A stretch of DNA of 64,000 nt from Octopus vulgaris (Eukaryota): positions 39,494,001-39,558,000 of the forward strand of contig OX597830.1 of NCBI GenBank assembly GCA_951406725.2. Direction: 5' to 3'. Each line of letters opens with the position of its first letter. Positions within the stretch are counted from its first letter, which is position 1. The notes under the pieces are model-generated. The model was not told the origin of the DNA, ran no database searches, and saw only the letters and a list, made by a program, of their open reading frames with translations. The position numbers and the translations under genes were made by a program. Below are positions 2,704 through 51,118 of the stretch, in pieces.

Positions 2704-3035
2704 CATATAAAAGGGATGACCTGTAAGTGGACATCCATTATGCTAGAAGAAGATCCACTATGGTCTTACTCCTAAGAAAGGAATTTTCTCAAGAAAATTT
2801 ACCACACGCCAGAACATGCGTGAGCAAGACAAATGAAAAGATACAAAATATAGATTAATCACAAACCAGGTTTCATTGTTAATGCTTACATAATCATTTA
2901 CATAATCATCCGTAAACTCGTCAGTGTGATCGTCTTTGAAATTATAATTTGCAGAACTATACACGAGACGTCCGCATGATGAATGTCCACTTAAAGCATA
3001 GTGGATGTCTACTTACAGGTCATCCCTTTTATATG
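2704..3035. mobile_element. MITE with ~40-bp TIRs in a TA context
   Basis: catataaaagggatgacctgtaagtggacatccattatgct and agcatagtggatgtctacttacaggtcatcccttttatatg are inverted repeats. Confidence 0.85.
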
Positions 3036-10559: not shown

Positions 10560-10562
<3 letters not shown>

Positions 10563-10838
10563 AATGCATATCACCACCACGAACCACTGCATCATACACT
10601 TTAAACATATAGCATGAACGAACTCACTTCAAACTATATATGAACTTTATGATGTCTGACTCCATTGTGTATTATAAATGAATTTCTTATATTTGATAGC
10701 ATGAACTATCTTTTTTTATATATAACTTTTTTTGATAAGGTTCATTTCAGGAACTGAAACATGTTATAATGTATATATAAAAATTAAAAATTGTATAATA
10801 TAGCAGCATTTTCGAACTTCATTTTTTACAAATATATA
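10560..10838 (+). repeat. 5' (partial) pseudo-LTR of the PLE
   Basis: Direct repeat of 15186-15464 (offset 4626); by eye only 2 substitutions in ~279 bp. Confidence 0.93.
10715..10782 (+). ncRNA. Minimal type-I hammerhead ribozyme, U3:A8 variant, in 5' pLTR
   Basis: TTGATAA (10732-10738), stem II GGTTC/GAACT, GAAAC-AT-GT-T (10756-10765) with palindromic stem III. Stem I is AT-rich and weak. Confidence 0.65.
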
Positions 10839-10897
10839 CCGACTCATATACGAGCTAATCCTATTATAAATATCACATCACGTACGAGCTCCCGAAA

Positions 10898-12300
10898 ATG
10901 CCTGCTAAAAAAGACACCAACGACATCTCCTCAATAAATGAAGAGATACTGAAAGAATTGAAAAGCATAAATTCAAACCTAACAGCAGTGTTAAACAAAC
11001 TCAACTCAACACCTCGACCTTCCACACAAACTAACGAGGAAACCGAATTGAATAAAACACCCTCTGAAATATTCGAGAAAGTTGAAAATCTATGCGATAC
11101 AATGACGACATTCTTCACAAACTTTACGAAACAAGAGCAACAAAAAGAAGGAACACATGAGAAGAACCGAGCAACTTCAACATTACAAATAAAGAACCAA
11201 GTCCTCCCCCAATGGAGAACACTACAGCGAAACAGAAAATTCACTTTTTGGAAAATTATACAAAATCAGAATAAAGCAGAGATTTACCAAAAATGGCTAG
11301 ACTCAACACCCCTAGTCATACCCCGTAAATTACAAATCAAGCCCATCTCGTAAGAACCAGAAGAACAAAGAAAACTTAGAGAAAAAAATGTCATTAGAAA
11401 AAAATGAAGATGGAAATAGAACTACTCAAGCTGAGAGCTACGACGAATGAAGAAAAAGTAAAAATCATAGACGAGGAAATCAACGAAGAAGTCATCAAAC
11501 TAATAGACGACATCAATACTGAAACATTACCAGCACTATGGAATGAAGAATGTGAAAAAGAGGAACTTAAGTCCCTCCAACGATGGGAAAAGAGCGCCAT
11601 CTGGTTTTTAGATTATGAAACCTACTTCAAAAATGAACACATATCCAACAACCCCTTCATAAAATTAAGTCAATCAAAACCAAATACCAACAGAACGGAA
11701 CAACCACCAAGAAATCCTAACACACTCTACACCAGAAAAGTACACCTAAAACACACCCCACACTACCTACACCAACCCCAAAACACCTACAGAGGCCCAC
11801 CACACCAGTTCGAAAATAGACATACCAACAGAGCAGAACAACCACCAAGAAATCCAAACACACTCTACACCAGAAAAATACATTTAAAACGCACCCCACA
11901 CTACCTACACCAACCCCAAAACACTTACAGGGTCCCACCACACCATTCCACGAACCTAAGAGCCACAACATACAATACTATAAAATACAATACACATAAC
12001 CAAACCAAAACGCTACTACCAAACATCCACCCCAGGAACCAACCATACAAACATAACAAACAACAAATGCACTACGGAGGAAACAACTACCAACACAATA
12101 TACCTGATGAACTAAGACGGAACACTAGGTACAACAACACACTCCAGAACAGAGCACCACAAACTCACTCTGACAATTATAACAACATGAGACAGATAAA
12201 TAGTAGCTTTGAACATAACTACACCAACCATTTTTTAGACCTTACACACAGGAACAGGGACACACGATGGCAAAGGACAAACAAAAGAAACCTCAGGTAA
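10898..12300 (+). pseudogene. PLE ORF1, ~467-aa coiled-coil/low-complexity protein, disrupted
   Basis: ORFs 10898-11353 and 11404-12300 join if TAA 11351-11353 is read through and one extra A is removed from the A-run near 11382-11388 (…KPIS*EPEEQRKLREK/MSLEKMKMEIELL). E/K/L-rich helical N-half; Q/N/H/P-rich C-half with a 46-aa duplication. Confidence 0.75.
12231..12237 (+). promoter_or_regulatory. Candidate -1 ribosomal frameshift heptamer T_TTT_TTA linking ORF1 to the RT frame
   Basis: X_XXY_YYZ register in the ORF1 frame (CAT TTT TTA). The -1 frame is the RT frame; it opens after TAG 12201-12203 and is stop-free from the heptamer to ATG 12267. Confidence 0.6.
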
Positions 12301-14564
12301 TTAAGATAATGAATCTCTCAAACAAAGAACTTACACCTAACGAAATAAGCATACTCTCCAAAGGACTTAAATTTACACCTACCCCACAACGTTCTAATTA
12401 CTATGAAATGAAAGATGATATTTCGGAATTTTGCAGAAAACTAAGACTCACCGAGGCATTTCAAGACAAACAAATAGAGGAGGACTCAATAGCTAGAAAC
12501 AAGAGCAATTACACCCCCACCAAGGGAAAGAATAAAGCCTTAGACCGCTATTGTGACTACATAACTAATTTCCCGTTTCAATTCATCAAGAAACAAAAAC
12601 ACAGCCCTAACTTCAACAAAAGAGAATGGAACGACCTCATCAAACTAAGAGAAGACAAAACAATAACAATTAAGGAGGCAGATAAGGGCAACGCGATAGT
12701 AATAATGAATACAAACGATTATAAAAATTTAGTGCTATCCCTATTAAGAGATGAAACGTATTATGAAAGGGCCCAACAGTATAATCAGCAAAAAATAATG
12801 CATAACCTTAGGACATTAATCAACACATACCAAGAAGGACTCACGAACAAGGAGTATGAATACATCACTAACTTCAAATGCAAATCGAGTTTGTTCTATG
12901 GTATCCCTAAGGTACACAAAAGCCAAATAATTAGAGAAATGTGCAAAACATCCACCGACATACTCATCAAAATCCCTTCACCAAATGATCTCAAACTAAG
13001 ACCGATAATAGCAGGGCCAGCATGTGAAACTCACCGCCTCAGCAATTTCTTAGACACACTTCTTAAACCTTTCCTAAAACACATCAAAAGCTACGTAAGA
13101 GACGATATAGATATGCTCAACCACCTCCCTAAAACAGTCAATGAGAAAACCCTTCTAGTATCATTCGACGTAGTTAATCTTTATTCTAACATCCCTCACA
13201 ACCTAGGAATAGAAGCGATCACCTTCTGGCTGAATAACTACCCCTTTGAACTCCCAACTCGCATAAACAAAGACCTTATAATAGAAGGACTTAGATTTAT
13301 TTTAGAGAACAATTATTTTATTTTTGACAATGATTTCTACAGACAAAGATCGGGAACAGCGATGGGCACGCGTACTGCACCATCTTTTGCCAACCTAGTG
13401 ATGGGATACCTCGAGAAAATACTCTACCGGATAACACTCGAGAAATATGGAAACACCTTCGCCACCTATATCCATAACAACTGGAAAAGATACCTCGATG
13501 ACTGTTTCATCATCTGAGACAAAGGTATAGAGAAACTTGAGGAATTTAAAATACTATTAAATGGAATAAACGACAATATACAATTCATGATGGATCACAA
13601 CGAAAAAGAATTACCATTTTTAGACATCCTCATTAAGAAAACCGGCAACAAAATAGAGACAGATATCTACTATAAACTGACAGACTCCAAACAGTACCTA
13701 CCCTTTGATTCATGCCACCCACGACACACTAGAATGAATGTCCCTTTTTGTTTAGCTAGAAGGATTTGCACCATAATATCAGACACAAACACCCGACACA
13801 CACGTCTCCAGGAACTTAGAACCACACTCACAAATAGAAACTATCCACAGCCCCTAATAGACAGTGCAATCCAACGGGTACTTAAATTAAGTATAGAAGA
13901 CCTGAGACAAACAAAACCAAAAAAGAAAGAACAATTAAAAACCCTTCCCTACATCTCTACACACAACCCACTCAACAATGAGGCCTTCAACACCATACTA
14001 CAAAGCACAGCCCTACTAAAGGGAGACCCAAAGATGAACCGGATCCTCGAAACACACACCATCATTAAAAGTAAACGGCAACCAAAATCCTTGAAAAGGA
14101 TTTTAACCCAAGCTACACTGCACTCAACATCAACCACAAAACCAGCAGTTAGAAAATGTGGAAGGCCCAACTGCGGAATCTGTGTCATCTTGAAAGAAGG
14201 ATCAGAATTTATACTGGAACAAGGCCACCAGTTCACCATTAGAACAAACTTCACCTGCGCATCAGAAAACTTAATTTACGTCATAACATGCGCAGGCTGC
14301 AATAGGCAGTATATAGGCCATACAAAAAATAGCTTACGTAACAGAATGGCGGTGCATAAATCACAAATTAGAAACCCTGATTACCGGAAAATACCGGTCA
14401 GCGGACACATAGATAGATGTGCTGGAAATGTAAATCCGAAATTTACAACTAACCCGCACTATAAATTCAGTGACAACGCAACCTTCACGCAACGCCAAAA
14501 TAAAGAACTGTATTTCATAAAAAAATTTAGACCAAGTTTAAACACCCTGGGCCAGGAATATTAA
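12267..14564 (+). pseudogene. PLE ORF2: reverse transcriptase + GIY-YIG endonuclease, one in-frame TGA
   Basis: ORFs 12267-13517 and 13587-14564 are in the same frame, separated only by TGA 13515-13517 in YLDDCFII*D (Trp expected). C-terminal LIYVITCAGCNRQYIG…RMAVH…KE…PSLN is a GIY-YIG domain. Confidence 0.93.
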
Positions 14565-14754
14565 AACAAAAGATAGGTCCTCCGAAAAGGAGAAGCAAAA
14601 TTCCACCACGGCCGCTACCTTAAACAGTCACTCGCACTGACGGAAATATGCCTTAGGAAAAAAGGAAAAAAAAACTTATAAAAGATCTCTTCGTACAAAT
14701 CTAACCCTGATGGACTGACCACATACGATACAGCTAAGGGTCAGACCCGATTCT

Positions 14755-15033
14755 GATTGGTCAACACGTTGATGACGTCTAGTTCTGCTAGACTGGACAG
14801 GATACAGACAAGGGGCAGAGATTAGTCAGAATATTGATGACGTCCTTTTCTGCTTGACTAGTCACCTAACAGGATACAGACAAGAGGCAGTTATAATACA
14901 GCGATAGGTCACGATTGGTCAGAATGTTGATGACGTCCCGTTCTGCTTGACTAAGCCACCTAACGAAACGATTGGTCAAAACGTTGATGACGTCACGTTA
15001 CGCTGGACTGACCACCTAACAGGTGTTATAAAA
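14755..15033 (+). promoter_or_regulatory. Putative PLE internal promoter: 4 tandem (ATTGG + TGACGTC) modules followed by TATAAAA
   Basis: GATT(G/A)GTC at 14755, 14820, 14913, 14970, each followed 16 nt later by GATGACGTC (14771, 14836, 14929, 14986); TATAAAA at 15027-15033. Confidence 0.65.
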
Positions 15034-15185
15034 CCCGAACAATTCACAAGATTCGCCAGAATCATCCAGCGAACACCAACCATAAGTCATCACAGTTGCT
15101 CAAGGTAAAAATGAATTCCCCGCTCTTTCAGGAACATCAATTTTTTATATTGACTGCATTCCACCACTTTGATCTATTTTTTATA

Positions 15186-15464
15186 TTGAATGCATATCAC
15201 CACCACGAACCACTGCATCATACACTTTAAACATATAGCATGAACGAACTCACTTCAAACTATATATGAACTTTATGATGTCTGACTCCATTGTGTATTA
15301 TAAATGAATTTCTTATATTTGATAGCATGAACTATCTTTTTTTATATATAACTTTTTTTGATAAGGTTCATTTCAGGAACTGAAACATGTTATAATGTAT
15401 ATATAAAAGTTAAAAATTGTACAATATAGCAGCATTTTCGAACTTCATTTTTTACAAATATATA
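15186..15464 (+). repeat. 3' pseudo-LTR segment of the PLE
   Basis: Direct repeat of 10560-10838, running straight into (TA)n. Confidence 0.93.
15341..15412 (+). ncRNA. Minimal type-I hammerhead ribozyme, U3:A8 variant, in 3' pLTR
   Basis: Same core: TTGATAA 15358-15364, GAAACATGTT 15382-15391. Confidence 0.65.
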
Positions 15465-16349
15465 TATATATATATATATATATGAGTCACATCTTTAAAA
15501 AGGTTTTTCAATGTCAACTTCCGGTATTGACATAGCAAGGGCAACATTTTCTGTTTTCATTTGTGAATCCTCTCACTCTCTATTTTAATGTTTTCATTTC
15601 AAGTTTTAATTCACTATTTGCAAACAACTATGATAAATTACTGAAAGAAATATTTACTAAGCAAGTGAGAATTTTTATAAAGTGAAGTTTTCAAGAGAAT
15701 TTATTTTCTGAACTTCCTTTCATTATTGAATATTTCAAGTTTGCAAGTTTAAATATTCGGTACAAGATAGCTTTTAACGAGCTTTCATTTATATGATTTT
15801 TTTGATTTCATGTTTATTTCACTCATTGTTTTCAATGTTCTCTCCCCATTCTCTCTCTCTCTCTCATGCACACACACTGTCTCTCTAATATAAACATCCA
15901 CACTGTTTCTGTGATATAAACACATACACACACACCAGGTTTGATTTCGTTATTACACAAATATCATATTAGAATTTTGCAATTCAACATGGGGTGTCCA
16001 AAAAAATATGGGCATTCTTTCACTTGAACCCACACACTTCGTTAATTTCCATAAAAATTTTTTACTCATTTACTTTTTGCATGCCATGTTCAGCTCTATG
16101 CATTTGTCATCAGTTACACATGCACACATGTGTTTTTGTATGTATGTTTGTATACATTTATATATGTGTGTGTGTTTGTGTGCATGTGTGTGAGAGAGAG
16201 AGAGTGGGTGAAAGGGTGTGTTGTCATGTATACATACATACATACATAAATACATATACATACATCTTTTTTGTATATATGTGTGTGCGTGTGTGTCAGA
16301 CAAAGAGAGAGAGAGAAAGAAAGTGATGTCTAAGTGGCACACACACACA

Positions 16350-30675: not shown

Positions 30676-31251
30676 CATAGCCAGCACCGCCCTGTCTGGC
30701 CTCCGTGCCGGTGGCACATAAAAAGCACCATCCGATCATGGCCATTGCCAGCCTCATCTGGCCTCCATGCCGGTGGCTCATAAAAAGTACCATCCAATTG
30801 TGGCCGTTGCCAGCCTCGTCTGGCCTCCATGCCAGTGGCATGTAAAAAGCACCATCCGATCGTGGCCGTTTGCCAGCCTCGTCTGGTACCTGTGCCGGTG
30901 GCCCGTAAAAAGCACCCACTACACTCACGGAGTGGTTGGCGTTAGGAAGGGCATCCAGCTGTAGAAACACTGCCAGATCAGACTGGGCCTGGTGCAGCCT
31001 TCTGGCTTCCCAGACCCCAGTTGAACCGTCCAACCCATGCTAGCATGGAAAGCGGATGTTAAACGATGATGATGATATATATATAATATAAATATGTATA
31101 TATATGTATATGTACACGCATACACATATATATATGCATATCCATTTGCTTCTCTCATTGTTTATGTATTCAGCTCTTTTGCTTTCGTATTTCATGTTGT
31201 TTACAATTTGTGATGTCCTGTATCCATATATGCATATATGAGTGCATGTAC

Positions 31252-31289
<38 letters not shown>

Positions 31290-31555
31290 GAAATATGTTT
31301 CGAAAAAAAATATAAAATACACGTGGAAATGTAAGAATAAAATATGAAAAATCAACGAATATGCATATTGTAGATATAAAAAGGCTATTTATGACAGGTA
31401 GTGACAAATATATACATTTAGAGTATTTCTAGTCAAAAAGGTCATTATTATTGATGATTATAAGAAGTTAATAATAATAATAAGGTAAGAGACTGAAACG
31501 AACCAATTGGTTTTCGCATTAGCTATTCATATATATATAAACATACATATATATG

Positions 31556-31996
31556 ATTATAATTAAGGGCATAGAAAAAGATTTTTTCAATGCTACATCC
31601 TGAAGATAGATACAAAATCATCGCACCACATTAAAAACCACAAAAATACACATGTCAAAAGCAAGAGAGCAAGCTAACAGAAATTAATAACAAAATAGCT
31701 CTGGATTACCTCATTCCTGGATCTGCCCCATGGCTTTATCGCATCAGCAGAGGAAATAAATGAGATATCTCATTTATTTCCTTTATGTATGCTCTGCTGA
31801 TGAGGTAAAGCCATGGGGCAGATCCAGAAATGAGCTAATTCAGAGCTAACTATTTTGTTATTAATTTCTGTTAGCTGGCTCCCTCATTTTCGGTGGGTGA
31901 ATTTTTGAGATTTTTAAAGTAGTGTAACAATTTAGCATCAATCTTCAGCATAAAGGCTTTAAAAAAATTTTTTTTTTTTACGCCCTTAATTATAAT
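31556..31996. repeat. ~440-bp imperfect palindrome with a degenerate hammerhead in each arm
   Basis: attataattaagggc/gcccttaattataat ends; perfect 32-bp centre at 31751-31782. Plus arm: gctctg-CTGATGA…GAAA-tgagctaat-t-cagagc (31791-31846). Confidence 0.85.
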
Positions 31997-32070
31997 TACA
32001 TAGGATTCCACCTTCATCAGTCTATTTTCATATGGCTGGCCACTGATAATTTTTTATTTATTTTACCCAT

Positions 32071-32112
<42 letters not shown>

Positions 32113-32295
32113 AGATATAGATATAAACATATACATACACACACACACATATATATATAGTCAGTTGAGGTGTGTTCTGTTAAGAACGCATAAGAGTACA
32201 AATAGAACTCATTCACCCTTAGAATTCCCAAATAGCCGGCAGTATTCTATTGTAGCATGGAAATCTAGATTTACTTACAGAGACAGCAACTGAGT

Positions 32296-32417
32296 ATTGC
32301 CTGAGGATATACATATAGATCTTCTTATACAGGTAAATCGTTACATAATTTAATTTAAACTTAACTTTAAATCCTGTATATACGAGGATCTGTATGTATC
32401 AAAACATTTGTGGTAAT
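32296..32417 (+). ncRNA. Decayed type-I hammerhead motif with very long stem II
   Basis: attgc-CTGAGGA-[atacatatagatcttc..tatacagg / cctgtata..gaggatctgtatgtat]-c-AAAAC-attt-GT-g-gtaat. G12>A is consistent with CpG decay. Confidence 0.65.
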
Positions 32418-32739
32418 TAAAAAGCTGCCTAACCGTACTTACTCTTTTACTTTTTACTTTTTAAATATATATACATATATATATAATAACAAAATAATAA
32501 CTAAAACATATGCATATATACATACATATATGTACGTACCTACATCTATATGTATATATACATGCATATATGGGTACAGGACACCAAAAACCGTCGAACA
32601 CAATGAGAAACAAAAACATAAAGACAAAACCAAGGAAATGGACATTTTTCTTAAACAACGAAAAAAAAGAGTACAAGACATACAACACAAGGAAAATTCC
32701 CCTTCTTCAGTCGCCTCTGTTTCATTTACTCCGCGTTTC

Positions 32740-32826
<87 letters not shown>

Positions 32827-33995
32827 AATATAGTATATAGAAGTCCTGCCCAGACATTTGATAAAATTTACATTTTTAATGGAGCCACTGCGACAGAATA
32901 TAGGTTAAGATTGGATAAACATTTTAATCCTTTCATTAATAACATGCCTGAAGATGCCCAAAAATATTTTTCTGGCTCAAAGTCATCTGAAAAGACTTAT
33001 TCACATCTAAATGTGAATTTCAGTGCAAATCTCATTTATACATTCGTGAAAACACATGATTTCATTATATAAACAATTGAGTTACACTGTCCAACATTAT
33101 TTTGCAGATTTTTTTTTTTCTTCCATTTTTCTTCCATATCAATTTTCTGAAATTTTTCACAATGAACAAAAAAACGGATACCAGTTTCATTGTTAACAAG
33201 CAGACAATTTGAAATAGCAGGATTTTTTGAAAAAAGACATAGAAAAATCTAGCAAAATATAAACTGAACATAAAAAGGACATGTGTGTTTATGAATTGGA
33301 TATTTTTGTTTCCGAAAGTAAAGCAATTCTTACAAGAATTCCAACAGAAATTGAAAAAAAAAAAAATTAATTTGTACCTGAATGTAGTAAGAATTTGAAA
33401 ACTGTTTTTCTTGATTATTTATAGGAAGAGACATGACCTAGCTACAGTCTTTCCAAAGAAATGAAACTATTAGATTATTTTTGTTTTTATTTAATCTTTA
33501 GAAGCAATTTGTGTAGAAATGAATTGTTATGGAAAATAGAGGTAAAAAAAAAGATAGTTCCTCATTTCCAACATGCATGGAAAGAATCTAAGCATTTTTA
33601 GAATATATATATTGTGTGTGTGCCTGCACATATGTGTATGTTTAAGTCTGTAGAGGGGAGAGAAAGAGAGAGAGTGTGTGGTATATTATCATTTATTTGC
33701 AGGATCCAATTGATTCAAGGTATTTTAATAAGAACACCAGGATGAGGGAGTCAACATATATTCTTTATGACCCAAATCTTAAATGTTAAATTTTAAACAA
33801 TTCACCAAATAAAAAACAATTTTTTTTTTTTGATGTAATTGATTTGTTCATCAATAAAAAATGCATCTCATACAGCTATAGTCAAACCTCATATAATTAA
33901 TAAAATAAAAACGAAGAAAAAAACACGAGAAAAAACAACACGAAGATGTGGTACATGCAAAGTATTAAATGACACTCAGGGAAGGGAAGAAAGGT

Positions 33996-34032
33996 TGTTC
34001 TATGTTTTGAGCAAAGCTCTTCTTCAGAAACA
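33996..34032 (-). ncRNA. Decayed minimal hammerhead motif
   Basis: Minus strand: tgttt-CTGAAGA-a-gagc-ttt-gctc-AAAACATA-gaaca; two CpG-type transitions from CGAAACGTA. Confidence 0.6.
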
Positions 34033-34244
34033 AGAGACAGAGGAAAGCCAAGAAAAAAGGAAGACTGAGGAAAAAAATCGCCCACAATCCTATATATATA
34101 TATATAAATATAAGTTCAGCAAAATTTAGATTCAGATGAATATGGTACTTAAGTTAAAGGCACCAGAATTTTGTATGGTATTATCCATATAAATCAAATG
34201 GGGTGATTATAATCAAAATAAGCAACAAGGATATCCAAGGTAGA

Positions 34245-34330
34245 GTAGTACAATTGTTTCATGCTACTTCATTTTATTAAACCCTGCAAGTATTACATCA
34301 GTTTTAAAATGTTGAGCAATCTTCAGCCAC
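34245..34330 (-). ncRNA. Type-I hammerhead ribozyme motif with intact core
   Basis: Minus strand: gtgg-CTGAAGA-t-tgct…agca-t-GAAAC-AATT-GT-A-ctac; palindromic stem III ACAATTGT, GUA site. Confidence 0.7.
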
Positions 34331-34581
34331 ATATAGAATTTTTCAATTAAATGGACAATGCACATTCTTATACTTATTTCATTTGCCAACATTACAAAGA
34401 GGGTAGACATCTAGACAGAGAGGTTAATTTCATCATTAAGAACATGATAGTAGTATGTTCATTCTCTGTCTATAGATTTTATCACTAAGTTCACTTTGTT
34501 ATTTAGATCAATCAGTGGGTTTTTTTAATTCTTTTTTGAATAGAGACAATGATTATATATATATGCATATGTATGCATATA

Positions 34582-34635
<54 letters not shown>

Positions 34636-34687
34636 GTACATATACATACATATATATATATATATATGTATGTATATATATGTACAT

Positions 34688-34735
<48 letters not shown>

Positions 34736-34744
34736 GTATATATA

Positions 34745-34776
<32 letters not shown>

Positions 34777-34791
34777 CACATATGTATATAT

Positions 34792-34822
<31 letters not shown>

Positions 34823-35019
34823 CCTCTTGCTTTACAAGAGATAAGATCTACTTTTGCCTGTCTCCTGTCTTAGCTCCTTTCTCCAGCATTCATCACTTTA
34901 CTTAATTATGGCTTAACAGCCCTCATCGTTTATTTTTACTGTTTTGTTCTCACTGTCCTGTTTTTGTTGCCACTTTCACCCTCCACAAAAATCACAAATT
35001 TTATTTAATTTGCTTTGCG

Positions 35020-35300
35020 GGTAGGACTGTTTTAATGAAGTCACATCTTGTCCCAACCTTCGAAATTCGGAGTACATAAAACAGGGGACAACTGATGAAG
35101 GGAATGTTCCTTATGTTGCCTATCTTGTTTCTCTATTTGTTTCTTTTGTCGTTCGAAAAAATGCTTGTTTTCCATGTTTTTGTTTTCTTATGTTCTCGTT
35201 TTTCATTTTGTTCATATTGTTTTGACGTCCTGTACCCATATATGCATGTATATATACATATATATGTAGGTATGTACATATATGTATGTATATATGCATA
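35020..35300 (+). mobile_element. (TA)n-associated repeat with degenerate hammerhead; related copies at 32500-32742(-) and 31150-31245
   Basis: Shared gacgtcctgtacccatatatgcatg and ctga(t/a)gaaggg..ttccttg segments; ctgttt-taatgaag…cttcGAAAttcggaGTA..aaacag at 35027-35084. Confidence 0.6.
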
Positions 35301-35315
35301 TATATATTATTATAT

Positions 35316-35374
<59 letters not shown>

Positions 35375-35400
35375 TTTATTAAAAATCACAAAAAATATCA

Positions 35401-35500
35401 CAAAAACTGTTACTCAGGTTCACATTCCCGTTCATCAGACAGCTTTGTTTTTCTAAACAAAACTATCTGATGAATGAGAACATGAAACTCTGAGTAACAG
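35401..35500. ncRNA. Inverted pair of minimal hammerhead motifs forming a ~95-bp hairpin
   Basis: Plus strand: ctat-CTGATGA-atg-agaa-cat-GAAAC-TCTGA-GT-A-acag (35463-35500). The minus strand carries a diverged copy at 35401-35450 with a ctgt/acag stem I. Confidence 0.75.
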
Positions 35501-36635
35501 AGTACTATTTTTTCCACCATGCTTCGCATTTATGTGCTTACTCTGGTATATATATATATATGTACACACATGCACATAACATTTGATTTATAAATATGTT
35601 TTCAAATCTACCTCATTCTTATTTTTTTTATTTATCTGTAAGGTGTGTGACAAATGCTAATTAATTTTTATTACAAATCCTTATTATATGTATTTCTGGC
35701 TATTCATGTATGCATGCGAGTTTATTTCATTTAGTTGATTGGATGTGCATTTCATTTCCTAGTTTTCTTCGAAGATATATTCTGGTATTTTGTTGTTTTA
35801 CCTTTATGGTCCACTTGTCTTTTGTGCATTAATTTTAATTCATAAATAATCCAGTAATTTGAACAATTCTTCTATATTAAAATTTTGTAGCATTTCCAAT
35901 TGAATATCAGCTAATAACTCATCTTCTATTATGATTTTTAAACAAACTTTAAATAATTTTATATTTTGTTGAATTTACCCATGTTTACCTGTATTTACCT
36001 GTAATTAGATTCACTTGGAGACAAAAATTATGCCATAAATTTGATTAAGAATTTTTTGTTAAATTGTGTTCCTAAAATCACGTTAATATGTAGTTAAATA
36101 AAAAAAAGTTAGTTGTTTCATGATTATTTGACGGTTTAATTGAAACACACAAGGGTGTCCTTTGGTTAGAAATATAGAAACAAAATGGTTAATTCCCTTA
36201 ATTATAGGGGAAAATTATACAGCATAGCATTAACAAATTTAATTTGTTAAGATGAAGGGCTTGTTTTACAGACTGCATTTTCATATAAAGCAGATAGGAG
36301 TGGCTGTAATTTTACATTCTATGTTGGCAAATTAGGTCTAATTAATAAACATAATGAGTTGTTAATCAGCTACAGGTATCAGCTTATTCTTTTATTCTTT
36401 TACATATTTCAGTCATTTGACTGTGGCCATGCTGGAGCACCACCTTGAAGGGTTTTAGCCAAACAGATCGACCACAGGACTTGTATTTTTGAAGCCTAGT
36501 ACTTATTCTATCGGTCTCTTTTGCAGGACCACTAAGTTACAGGGACGTAAACACACCAACACTGGTTGTCAAGCGGTGATGGGGGTGGGGGACATACATA
36601 GACACAAAGACATATACACATATATACACATAGAT

Positions 36636-44651: not shown

Positions 44652-45907
44652 ATTTTTCTTCTTCTTTCAAATTTGCTTCCATTTCTTGCCGAGTGTCTTC
44701 CCAACTCCTAGGGCAAAGAAACTCATAGTATACATTGGTAGGCCATTAAACCAAACTCAGTAGTTCGTTCATTTTTTTTTTTTTTTTTTTTTTTTAAAGT
44801 TAAATTAAAATACATGAGCAGCAACAGTTCTCACATTGACAATGCTCTTCTCAATACGTGTGATGTACCAGTTAAGACAATCTTTTGCACTTCTTGCAGG
44901 GATGGTAAGCCAGGGATCATTCTCATATAATTTTCGGTTCCCTTCTTGATCATTCCTAGTGCTCCTACGATCACTGGTATTGTAACCGCCTTGAGATGCC
45001 ACATTTTCTCAATTTCAATGAGTAGGTCTTTATATTTTCTGAGCTTGTCAAACTCTTTCGCTGAGATATTATGATCACAGGGGATGCTCATGTCGATCAA
45101 TAAGCAAACTTTATTGTTTTGGTCTTTCACAACAATATCTGGTTTATTGGCCTTGATGGTTCGGTCTGTATGTACTGGAAAGTCCCACAGAATGGTTACA
45201 TTTTCTCCTTCAGTTACAGCCTCAGGGTGGTGATTATACCACTTGTCGGCAGTTTTGATATTGTAATGCCGACTTATTAGCCAGTGGAGATATTGGCCAA
45301 CTCTGTCATGTCTTAATTTATACTCCACTAGTGCTAAGACTTTACATCCAGAGATTAGGTGGTCCACTGTTTCAATCATGTCGTTGCAGAATCGGCATTT
45401 TGGGTCTGCTCCATTTTTCATCACATTGGCCTGGTAGTTCTGGGTTAATAGGCTTTGATCTTGAGCAGCCAGGATGAAACCTTCGCTCTCTGCTTTTAGC
45501 CCTGAGCTCCGTAGCCACTGATGGGTTTGCTTCTGGTCAACATCAGCTTGTTTGCTGCAGGTCACATATTTGCCGTGCAGAGGTTTCTCCTCCCACCTAT
45601 CAGCCAATTGCTCGTGCGCTTTTTTCATTGCCATCATTTTCACCTTCTTTGCAACAATAGTTGCCGTACTTCCCTCGGGTTGTTCAGTTTGGGTATCCTG
45701 CACGAGATCAGTAGCAAATTTCTTGCTTTCCTTTATTATAGAATGAAGCTTCTTTCGTCTCTCGTGATTTTCCACGAGCTTCAGCATCCAGTCATTCGAT
45801 ATTTCGAGATATTTGGCCAGTCCAATTGTGGTTGTTTTGTAAGCTAGTTCAAATTGGATCAGGCCTCGACCTCCTTGGGCTCTGGGAAGGTAAAGGCGAT
45901 CTACGTC

Positions 45908-50699: not shown

Positions 50700-51118
50700 T
50701 ATTATGGTCGTTGCTGGCGCCGCCCCGTCTAGCCTCCGTGTCGGTGGCACGTAAAAGCACCATTCGTTCGTGTCCGTTGCCAGCCTCGCCTGGCCCCCGT
50801 GCAGGTGACACGTAAAAGCACCATCCGTTCGTGTTCGTTGCCAGCCTCGCCTGGCCCCCGTGCCGGTGACACGTAAAAGCACCATCCATTCGTGTCCGTT
50901 TGCCAGCTCTGTCTGGCACCTGTGCGGGTGGCACGTAAAAAGCACCCACTACACTCACGGAGTGGTTGGCGTTAGGAAGGGCATCCAGCCGTAGAAACAC
51001 TGCCAGATCTGACTGGGCCTGATGAAGCCTTCCAGCTTCACAGACCCCAGTTGAACCATCCAACCCATGCTAGCATGGAGAACGGACGCTAAATGATGAT
51101 GATGATGATGATGATGAT
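50700..51118 (+). mobile_element. SINE-like family D with internal ~60-bp tandem array and (GAT)n tail; others at 30680-31076, 17880-18082(-), 26070-26280(-), ~3840-3980(-)
   Basis: Shared gttggcgttaggaagggcatccagc…aacccatgctagcatggaa…gatgatgat; 3-4 GC-rich tandem units at 50720-50950 and 30680-30920. Confidence 0.8.

Follow-up and report, generated by a model that had tools for sequence, protein, structure and literature searches.

Penelope-like elements (PLEs) carry hammerhead ribozymes in their pseudo-long terminal repeats (pLTRs), and published work already covers solo pLTR hammerheads, pairs on opposite strands, tailed inverted 5′ pieces and a bias towards (TA)n (PMC4209133, PMC8557442), as well as the link between retrozymes and PLEs (PMC7229834; bioRxiv 10.64898/2026.07.22.740005, Li, Clavereau and Pollet 2026). 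Two further systems are close to the case described here. In the type-SGC and type-CSG hammerheads of Eckert et al. 2023, the CUGAnGA box and its adjacent paired strands are taken as inseparable (PMC10085705). The Naiads, which are PLEs with an N-terminal GIY-YIG endonuclease domain and a reverse transcriptase (RT), are said to be without canonical hammerheads, and the (TA)n-targeting Naiad_Ovul was entered as HHR_half_core (Craig et al. 2021, PMC8557442). Here, we analysed a 64,000-nucleotide window of Octopus vulgaris DNA (contig OX597830.1, positions 39,494,001 to 39,558,000; coordinates below are those of the window), and in it a stretch of about 4 kb (31480-35500) with 27% GC, interrupted by (TA)n tracts, in which a sequence-only reading had proposed a hotspot of eight hammerhead motifs. 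The motifs belong to six repeat blocks, A to F. The cluster as such is known biology; what appears to be new is the split-core wiring of block E, whose predicted hammerhead opens its chain between A9 and G10.1.

Architecture of the predicted split-core hammerhead

Two E-family copies lie within the stretch, with the following features:

34822..35236, plus strand: block E, a 5′-truncated copy of a repeat of some 660-740 bp without coding sequence, which forms partial head-to-tail tandems
35021..35098, plus strand: predicted split-core hammerhead, non-circularly permuted, decayed copy, delineated by covariation
35021-35025 and 35057-35061, plus strand: 5′ and 3′ strands of predicted stem II
35027-35034/35077-35084, plus strand: predicted accessory helix
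35042-35045/35066-35069, plus strand: predicted stem III, mutated in the window copy
35048-35054/35085-35091, plus strand: predicted stem I, with predicted cleavage after 35047
35062-35065 and 35092-35098, plus strand: core boxes GAAA and CUGAUGA
35099..35112, plus strand: hairpin immediately after A9, predicted in most copies
32572..32744, minus strand: second E-family copy, 5′-truncated, 74% identical to block E, with only the GAAA and CUGAAGA halves (32659-32744)

Another E-family 3′-end fragment lies at 31141-31240, just to the left of the 4-kb stretch.

All eight motifs had been given a type I topology in the sequence-only reading. This fails for the motif at 35027-35084(+), because the supposed stem I is the accessory helix (35027-35034/35077-35084), which surrounds GAAA and excludes CUGAUGA, the latter box lying downstream at 35092-35098. 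The one unusual feature of the locus, the topology of block E, had been overlooked, and so had a ninth relic, the 5′-truncated E-family copy at 32659-32744(-). The strands of E follow the order stem II, accessory helix, III′, cleavage site, I′, II′, GAAA, III, accessory helix′, I and CUGAnGA; the core elements run from the cleavage site through GAAA to CUGAnGA (cleavage block first in diverged subfamilies), which is not the type I order. Because covariation puts the partner of stem II upstream, the chain is predicted, with good support, to open between A9 and G10.1. PLE hammerheads tolerate an extra base at A9/G10.1 (PMC4209133), so that an opening of the chain at this point would be plausible. 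The window copy carries mutations in stem III and in one pair of stem II.

The covariation was assessed on copies collected from the genome assembly (2.8 Gb, 227 contigs). The half-core pattern of E, made up of the GAAA and CUGAnGA blocks, has 4,404 exact matches in this genome, compared with 0 for the reversed control. Among the collected loci there are 70 near matches, 55 of which were anchored, the other 15 being truncated or without the cleavage block. In the 55 copies, the Watson-Crick fraction is 0.86 for stem I (0.72 after partner swaps) and 0.75 for stem III (0.55), with none of 5000 swaps as high. An NUH triplet is present in 53 of the 55 (GUC in 25), although the cleavage block formed no part of the search pattern. 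For the upstream strand of stem II, Watson-Crick pairing reaches 0.865 versus 0.754 in swaps (0/3000 as high, the offset being re-chosen for each swap), and the partners change in step across three main variants, GAAGG/CCTTC, GAACG/CGTTC and GAGCA/TGCTC. In 15 hand-picked copies of the window subfamily, the four-helix structure is paired in 92.5% of cells, with 13 double-sided changes versus 5.6 (0/500). Finally, a split-core descriptor free of family sequence gave 18 matches in 1.52 Mb of loci, 14 of them in E and 4 in repeats unrelated to E; neither 5 shuffles nor the 600 kb of random DNA yielded any. The E family thus combines the hammerhead boxes with covarying stems I-III, and self-cleavage is predicted; that the E fold represents a new hammerhead variant is, as a prediction from these alignments, well supported.

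In block E, the CUGAnGA, cleavage and GAAA blocks follow one another in the cyclic order of the type-SGC and type-CSG hammerheads, and the core is pseudoknotted as in these; with type-SGC in particular, E shares the S, G, C block order, a short link between stems I and II (2-5 nt in the paper) and an accessory helix that joins the other sides of these stems (PMC10085705). Unlike in either type, however, the chain opens inside block C, at A9/G10.1: the uninterrupted block C of type-SGC is missing, and the covarying stem II strand sits at the 5′ end. Furthermore, the described type-SGC and type-CSG examples come from metatranscriptomes, metagenomes and one bacterium, and their cleavage has been demonstrated (PMC10085705), whereas E is a high-copy chromosomal repeat of an animal, for which cleavage is predicted from sequence. 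Could E then be a plain type-SGC hammerhead in the sense of Eckert et al. 2023, with block C whole and stem II formed with the G-run after CUGAnGA? The S, G, C order and the link of 2-5 nt between I′ and II′ agree with that class (PMC10085705), and the G-run pairing forms standard pairs in 95% of stem II cells in 21 copies. Those pairs, however, are mostly G.U, and their Watson-Crick fraction (0.32) matches that of swaps (0.315; 1185/3000 as high); the G-run is predicted to lie within a hairpin of its own, whereas the upstream strand pairs nearly perfectly and covaries with its partner across the three stem II variants. We consider the plain type-SGC reading very unlikely. The stem II rows of the earlier 21-copy alignment represent this rejected pairing; 4 of its 25 rows (L247, L254, L124 and the window) were excluded as misaligned by MAFFT, truncated copies having been excluded beforehand.

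Two further structural candidates were set aside. A twister reading of E has no Rfam match, and the first pseudoknot remained unpaired when the sequence was matched by eye to the twister consensus. An outer helix that would close the A9/G10.1 gap, hinted at by visual inspection and by co-folding in some copies, was too inconsistent to count.

The E element, the Naiad tail and a second split-core family

The unit of E, 821 bp long in one locus, is joined tail to head in 12 of 30 E loci, one of which is the query locus. With its coding-free unit, head-to-tail repeats and predicted ribozyme, E has the layout of a non-LTR retrozyme. Indeed, E and A resemble non-LTR retrozymes, which are coding-free, arranged head to tail, equipped with a hammerhead and tied to PLE pLTRs, in forming partial tandems (PMC7229834, bioRxiv 10.64898/2026.07.22.740005). 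By contrast, the hammerheads of retrozymes are type I, circular RNA is for E an inference, and the length of E, about 700 bp, compares with 150-450 bp in retrozymes (PMC7229834) or a consensus range of 51-972 bp (bioRxiv 10.64898/2026.07.22.740005). E would fit a non-autonomous element copied from multimeric or circular RNA. Among the sequencing runs listed, none is recorded as RNA; the stretch is covered by assembled contigs of four runs under four organism labels, which are uninformative on ends, strand and level.

In 7 of the 30 loci (L292, L293, L299, L302, L304, L310 and L320), a helicase frame is joined by its 3′ end to the E unit, with the junction near oriented position 1500, and the frame reads on into the start of E. 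We take its motifs to be PIF1/Helitron-like. In the 5′ part of the E unit (for example L137:1290-1560), a word resembling a splice donor precedes a long tract of pyrimidines, both upstream of the ribozyme, and acceptor-like words are present in some subfamilies. PLEs hold introns in this region upstream of the ribozyme.

The 3′ end of the Naiad_Ovul consensus, read by eye from the published supplement, shows the split-core order of E with other stem sequences (PMC8557442). Its tail motif has 374 exact matches in this genome, and most of 20 such loci keep both the upstream strand and the cleavage block. A second split-core family, unrelated to E, was found on the minus strands of L244, L114, L068 and L116; it has a hairpin after A9, a (TA)n end and, in most copies, a kink-turn-like loop. 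By eye, the loop of the Naiad tail also reads as a kink-turn. In one E subfamily (L227, L192 and the second copy in L128), the internal loop is without the conserved purine motif and stems I-III are kept. For all its likeness in 3′-end wiring, E differs from Naiads, which encode GIY-YIG and RT domains (PMC8557442): it has no such open reading frame (ORF), and no nucleotide similarity that would point to descent from a Naiad 3′ end was seen against 20 Naiad-tail loci. In open-access PMC and bioRxiv, we found no prior description of the split-core arrangement.

The type I blocks and their links to Penelope-like elements

The remaining blocks, together with the PLE further upstream in the window, are:

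31529..32075, both arms: block A, two copies of one family arranged as a fold-back, with a unit of about 460-550 bp, in partial tandems at other loci
32160..32460, plus strand: block B, canonical type I hammerhead family with a long stem II
33890..34090, minus strand: block C, TA-flanked repeat of about 215 bp with a minimal PLE-type hammerhead
34108..34549, minus strand: block D, 5′-truncated pLTR (3′ end) of a GIY-YIG Penelope-like element
35372..35550, both arms: block F, fold-back pair conserved at its centre, one arm of which has a tail; type I hammerhead
10560..15470, plus strand: near-intact Penelope-like element with RT (12219-13514) and GIY-YIG (13518-14561) separated by one stop, flanked by (TA)n

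Contrary to the description of the eight motifs as sequence-unrelated folds, they fall into six repeat families with two inverted-copy pairs: 31698-31752(-) and 31791-31846(+) are the two arms of a single fold-back (76% over 237 nt), and 35401-35450(-) and 35463-35500(+) those of another (80% over 46 nt). Hammerhead-like sequence is present at all eight sites, but a strict canonical type I scan recovered none of them. Their status was judged with a relaxed PLE-type descriptor modelled on the variants in PMC4209133, which admits U3-A8 or C4 cores, a palindromic stem III and, where stem II begins at its foot, a mismatch or one additional base. Two of the eight pass, 31791(+) and 34245(-), and five are mutated copies of genuine family hammerheads.

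Genuine type I hammerheads are evident from the family alignments for A, B, C, D and F, stem III taking the form of alternative palindromes. In block A, the hammerhead has a palindromic stem III and, throughout the family, an extra A ahead of GAAA; 31791-31846(+) passes, 31698-31752(-) is defective (A9 and A13 changed), and 9 of 25 family copies pass, with paired changes in stem I. The block B copy, 32296-32417(+), is changed at G10.1, G12 and H17 (3/19 family copies pass), and the block C copy, 33996-34032(-), at G12, with stem III broken (6/19). Block D, at 34245-34330(-), is a type I hammerhead with an intact core, a U.U at the base of stem II and a palindromic stem III, and 16 of its 24 family copies pass. 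In block F, the majority core of the family is CCGACGA, and 7 of 22 copies pass at the anchor; 35401-35450(-) has a 2-nt deletion after GAA, whereas 35463-35500(+) keeps the core with a mismatch in stem I. Thus, type I order, an intact core and a short palindromic stem III characterize the families of all five blocks, but among the window copies only A(+) and D.

These five families resemble the PLE hammerheads of Cervera and de la Peña 2014 (PMC4209133) in their type I order and short palindromic stem III; C shares the extra nucleotide after A9, and the PLE of the window likewise the U3-A8 core. The thousands of solo copies and the opposite-strand pairs 100-700 bp apart described there recur here. 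Departures from the published scheme are the unpaired A before GAAA in A, the C at position 4 in F (family majority) and E, which stands outside it. The available sections of PMC4209133 contain no octopus case.

The PLE at 10560-15470 has pLTRs that are 99% identical, with a U3-A8 hammerhead near 10729-10768 and 15355-15394, and its RT and GIY-YIG domains are recognised, the RT with a score slightly below the Pfam cut-off. Open frames of 781 aa, the length of its two frames plus the stop, carry 16 of the 148 GIY-YIG matches in the genome; therefore, the family is probably young, and it has probably been active recently. In 12 of 30 such PLE loci, the U3-A8 hammerhead lies downstream of the endonuclease in the sense direction. 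The sequence-only reading had named this element as an example of the PLEs that mobilise the families, but a sequence tie between it and the cluster is not supported: the hammerhead of its pLTR is a different one, and blocks A-F gave no real match to the element (best E value 0.009).

The proposed linkage to PLE ORFs is supported for D. Longer D copies extend upstream into a GIY-YIG frame (PF01541, E value 1.1e-5), and of 20 loci of this endonuclease, 14 have D 1.0-1.5 kb downstream in the sense direction (12 of 18 when the two discovery loci are left out). Block D is therefore a PLE pLTR, located 3′ of the GIY-YIG ORF in the sense direction, and both element types that had been suggested, solo pLTRs and retrozyme-like units, occur in the stretch, D as a solo PLE 3′ end and E as coding-free head-to-tail units. 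Within 1.5 kb of A, B, C, E and F, we found only scattered ORF pieces, antisense or split off by other repeats, in loci that are short and were picked by likeness to the window. At L098, an endonuclease lies upstream of B with other repeats intervening. In L285, an E copy has an endonuclease 1.3 kb upstream, which was rejected as a parent, as both a TA tract and E's own tandem start lie in between.

Copy number, density and (TA)n context

Genome searches showed all six blocks to be multi-copy, so that the possibility of single-copy sequences raised by the sequence-only reading does not apply. The first-look candidates, that is, the initial genome matches per block, of which 40 were scored for each, number 74 for A, 627 for B, 2493 for C, 3373 for D, 4544 for E and 2534 for F. 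The 3′ end is followed by (TA)3+ in 20 of 24 copies of D and in 16 of 19 copies each of C and B, compared with 17% of random 80-nt windows. Copy numbers and TA-flanked 3′ ends thus agree with the proposal of multi-copy, hammerhead-bearing mobile repeats that terminate in (TA)n. The suspected enrichment beside (TA)n was also borne out, with a median distance to (TA)4+ of 118 nt for 64 motifs and 520 nt for random points, a proximity that is partly built in, as E has its own TA-rich tract.

Motif density exceeds that of dinucleotide-shuffled sequence: against the two motifs that pass the relaxed descriptor, 300 shuffles gave a mean of 0.023, and a single one reached 2. On a background of 60 regions of 10 kb (600 kb) at fixed round coordinates, the same descriptor found 29 intact matches, 7 of them within one tandem array, and 1, 1, 1, 3 and 0 in shuffles. 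In Rfam, no hammerhead or other ribozyme family is among the best 150 of 246 matches listed, nor in the full listings of two further Rfam scans. When decayed relics are included by homology, there are 71 in the 600 kb of random DNA versus 9 in the 4-kb cluster, a comparison that favours the cluster, as the family models contained the window's own copies. The best count per 4 kb is 7 in two random regions (L192 and L141), 4 in one and at most 3 in the other 57.

The region in L192 (5379-9891; 40.0 Mb on C19) is, like ours, a mixed cluster, with 7 relics in 4 kb that comprise D-like, F and E copies. The word hotspot is thus apt for the density of 9 relics in 4 kb, but the locus is not singular, as 1 in 60 random regions holds a comparable mixed cluster; it is the upper tail of a genome-wide pattern and ordinary in this genome. 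This bears on whether the 4-kb stretch might be a single locus, composite or under selection, that functions as a ribozyme cluster, instead of a passive pile-up. Its relic count does lie above that of all 60 random regions. However, 6 of the 8 motifs fail the descriptor, each block is ended by its own TA tract and matches different dispersed loci, a mixed cluster of 7 recurs in the background sample, and TA tracts are 3.6 times denser here (6.0/kb versus 1.6/kb), which together leave a selected locus with next to no credibility.

The other rich random region, L141:2272-4548 (C1:20002272-20004548), is a back-to-back array of a 353-359-bp unit, whose copies are split five to two between the strands, with an identical intact type I hammerhead in every unit; by appearance, it is a young retrozyme array.

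Origin of the cluster and action of the E fold

Quite probably, then, the stretch has been built up from short and for the most part decayed copies of six abundant (TA)n-ending families, inserted one after another by Penelope-like enzymes, in which E carries a predicted hammerhead open at A9/G10.1. The families are multi-copy with TA-flanked ends, they occur in fold-back and partial-tandem layouts, D has a PLE parent and the helices of E covary. On this explanation, a PLE endonuclease would nick (TA)n, and the RT would copy the RNA from its 3′ end, often stopping early or inverting; each insertion would bring or split TA tracts and so provide new targets, resulting in local pile-ups. A multimeric E transcript might fold into the split-core order: the accessory helix would link stems I and II at their distal ends, and the cage would be closed by a bend of the internal loop that lies below stem III. 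Cleavage after the NUH triplet would free a unit of about 700 nt that could circularise and be reverse-transcribed in trans, yielding copies longer than one unit. As helper, we propose most likely a Naiad-type or other TA-targeting PLE.

Several results weigh against this explanation. Blocks A, B, C, E and F have no autonomous parent that we could find, and a sense-direction PLE ORF is absent upstream of E in all 30 loci. No recognisable RT frame was reached in the 20 Naiad-motif loci, the link to Naiads resting on the published consensus, and between E and these 20 Naiad-tail loci there is no nucleotide match, the fold alone being common to them. The window copy of E fails the split-core descriptor, as do 17 of its 19 nearest relatives. 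The covariation statistics count sequences, not events, with roughly six subfamilies behind them, and CpG decay mimics some of the double changes; pairs with a change on both sides are not clearly above shuffles (32/500; 182/500 for the earlier alignment). For the internal loop of E below stem III, a straight loop-E-type fit is at least as good as a kink-turn, and a monomeric cage would therefore be hard to close. The minimum-energy fold of five E copies is an inactive rod plus hairpin, predicted by a program that cannot model pseudoknots. To these comes the partly built-in TA proximity noted above.

The last structural points lend themselves to another interpretation, namely, that the E fold works solely as a dimer, with the CUGAnGA block supplied by a second RNA and the monomer as the off state. 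The accessory helix prolongs stem III and meets stem I without a linker, so that closing the monomer would need a sharp bend; besides the inactive monomer prediction, E is found in tandems, and dimer action has been reported for PLE hammerheads (PMC4209133, PMC6765202). Yet directly joined helices exist in type-SGC RNAs, which as a class cleave in cis during transcription (PMC10085705). Moreover, the loop of the Naiad tail, like that of the second family, can be read by eye as a canonical kink-turn, which permits a monomeric cage. We regard obligate dimer action as unlikely, although worth keeping in view.

One might also conceive of the E fold as a structured relic without catalytic function, such as a signal to which the helper RT binds, with the boxes kept for other reasons or by descent. 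Catalysis by E is deduced from sequence, most genomic copies are decayed, and Naiads are widespread with no recognised hammerhead (PMC8557442). On the other hand, the three core helices persist, as does the NUH triplet, in subfamilies that differ in their stems, in the second family and in the Naiad tail, and the near-universal NUH of the anchored copies lies outside the search pattern. A non-catalytic relic is, to our mind, decidedly unlikely.

We lean, with due reserve, towards the view that E is an active hammerhead of a seventh strand arrangement, open at A9/G10.1 and caged by the accessory helix, that it is the ribozyme thought to be missing from Naiads, and that it drives at least two non-autonomous circular-RNA families, which number thousands of copies in this genome. 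The predicted wiring of E breaks the premise of the six-way hammerhead permutation scheme (PMC10085705), and current descriptors and Rfam therefore miss E. If the view is right, non-circular permutations would extend from environmental RNAs to animal chromosomes, at high copy number, and the Naiad "half cores" would be explained despite the reported absence of canonical hammerheads (PMC8557442).

Additional features of the window

Between 32826 and 33880, the stretch has no long match among the loci collected for the blocks, apart from a 47-nt, 77% match to the pLTR of the neighbouring PLE. To the left of block A, 31290-31475 is a TA-flanked repeat, also located beside a PLE end in L240 (83%), in which no hammerhead was recognised. 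Elsewhere in the window, a frame of 358 aa at 44831-45907(-), with a zf-RVT match slightly below the cut-off, represents the 3′ part of a non-LTR retroelement, and 30694-30916 and 50732-50946 are two copies of a family of 61-62-bp tandem repeats. A further type I hammerhead candidate that passes the descriptor lies at 2857-2931(-), adjoining TA tracts.

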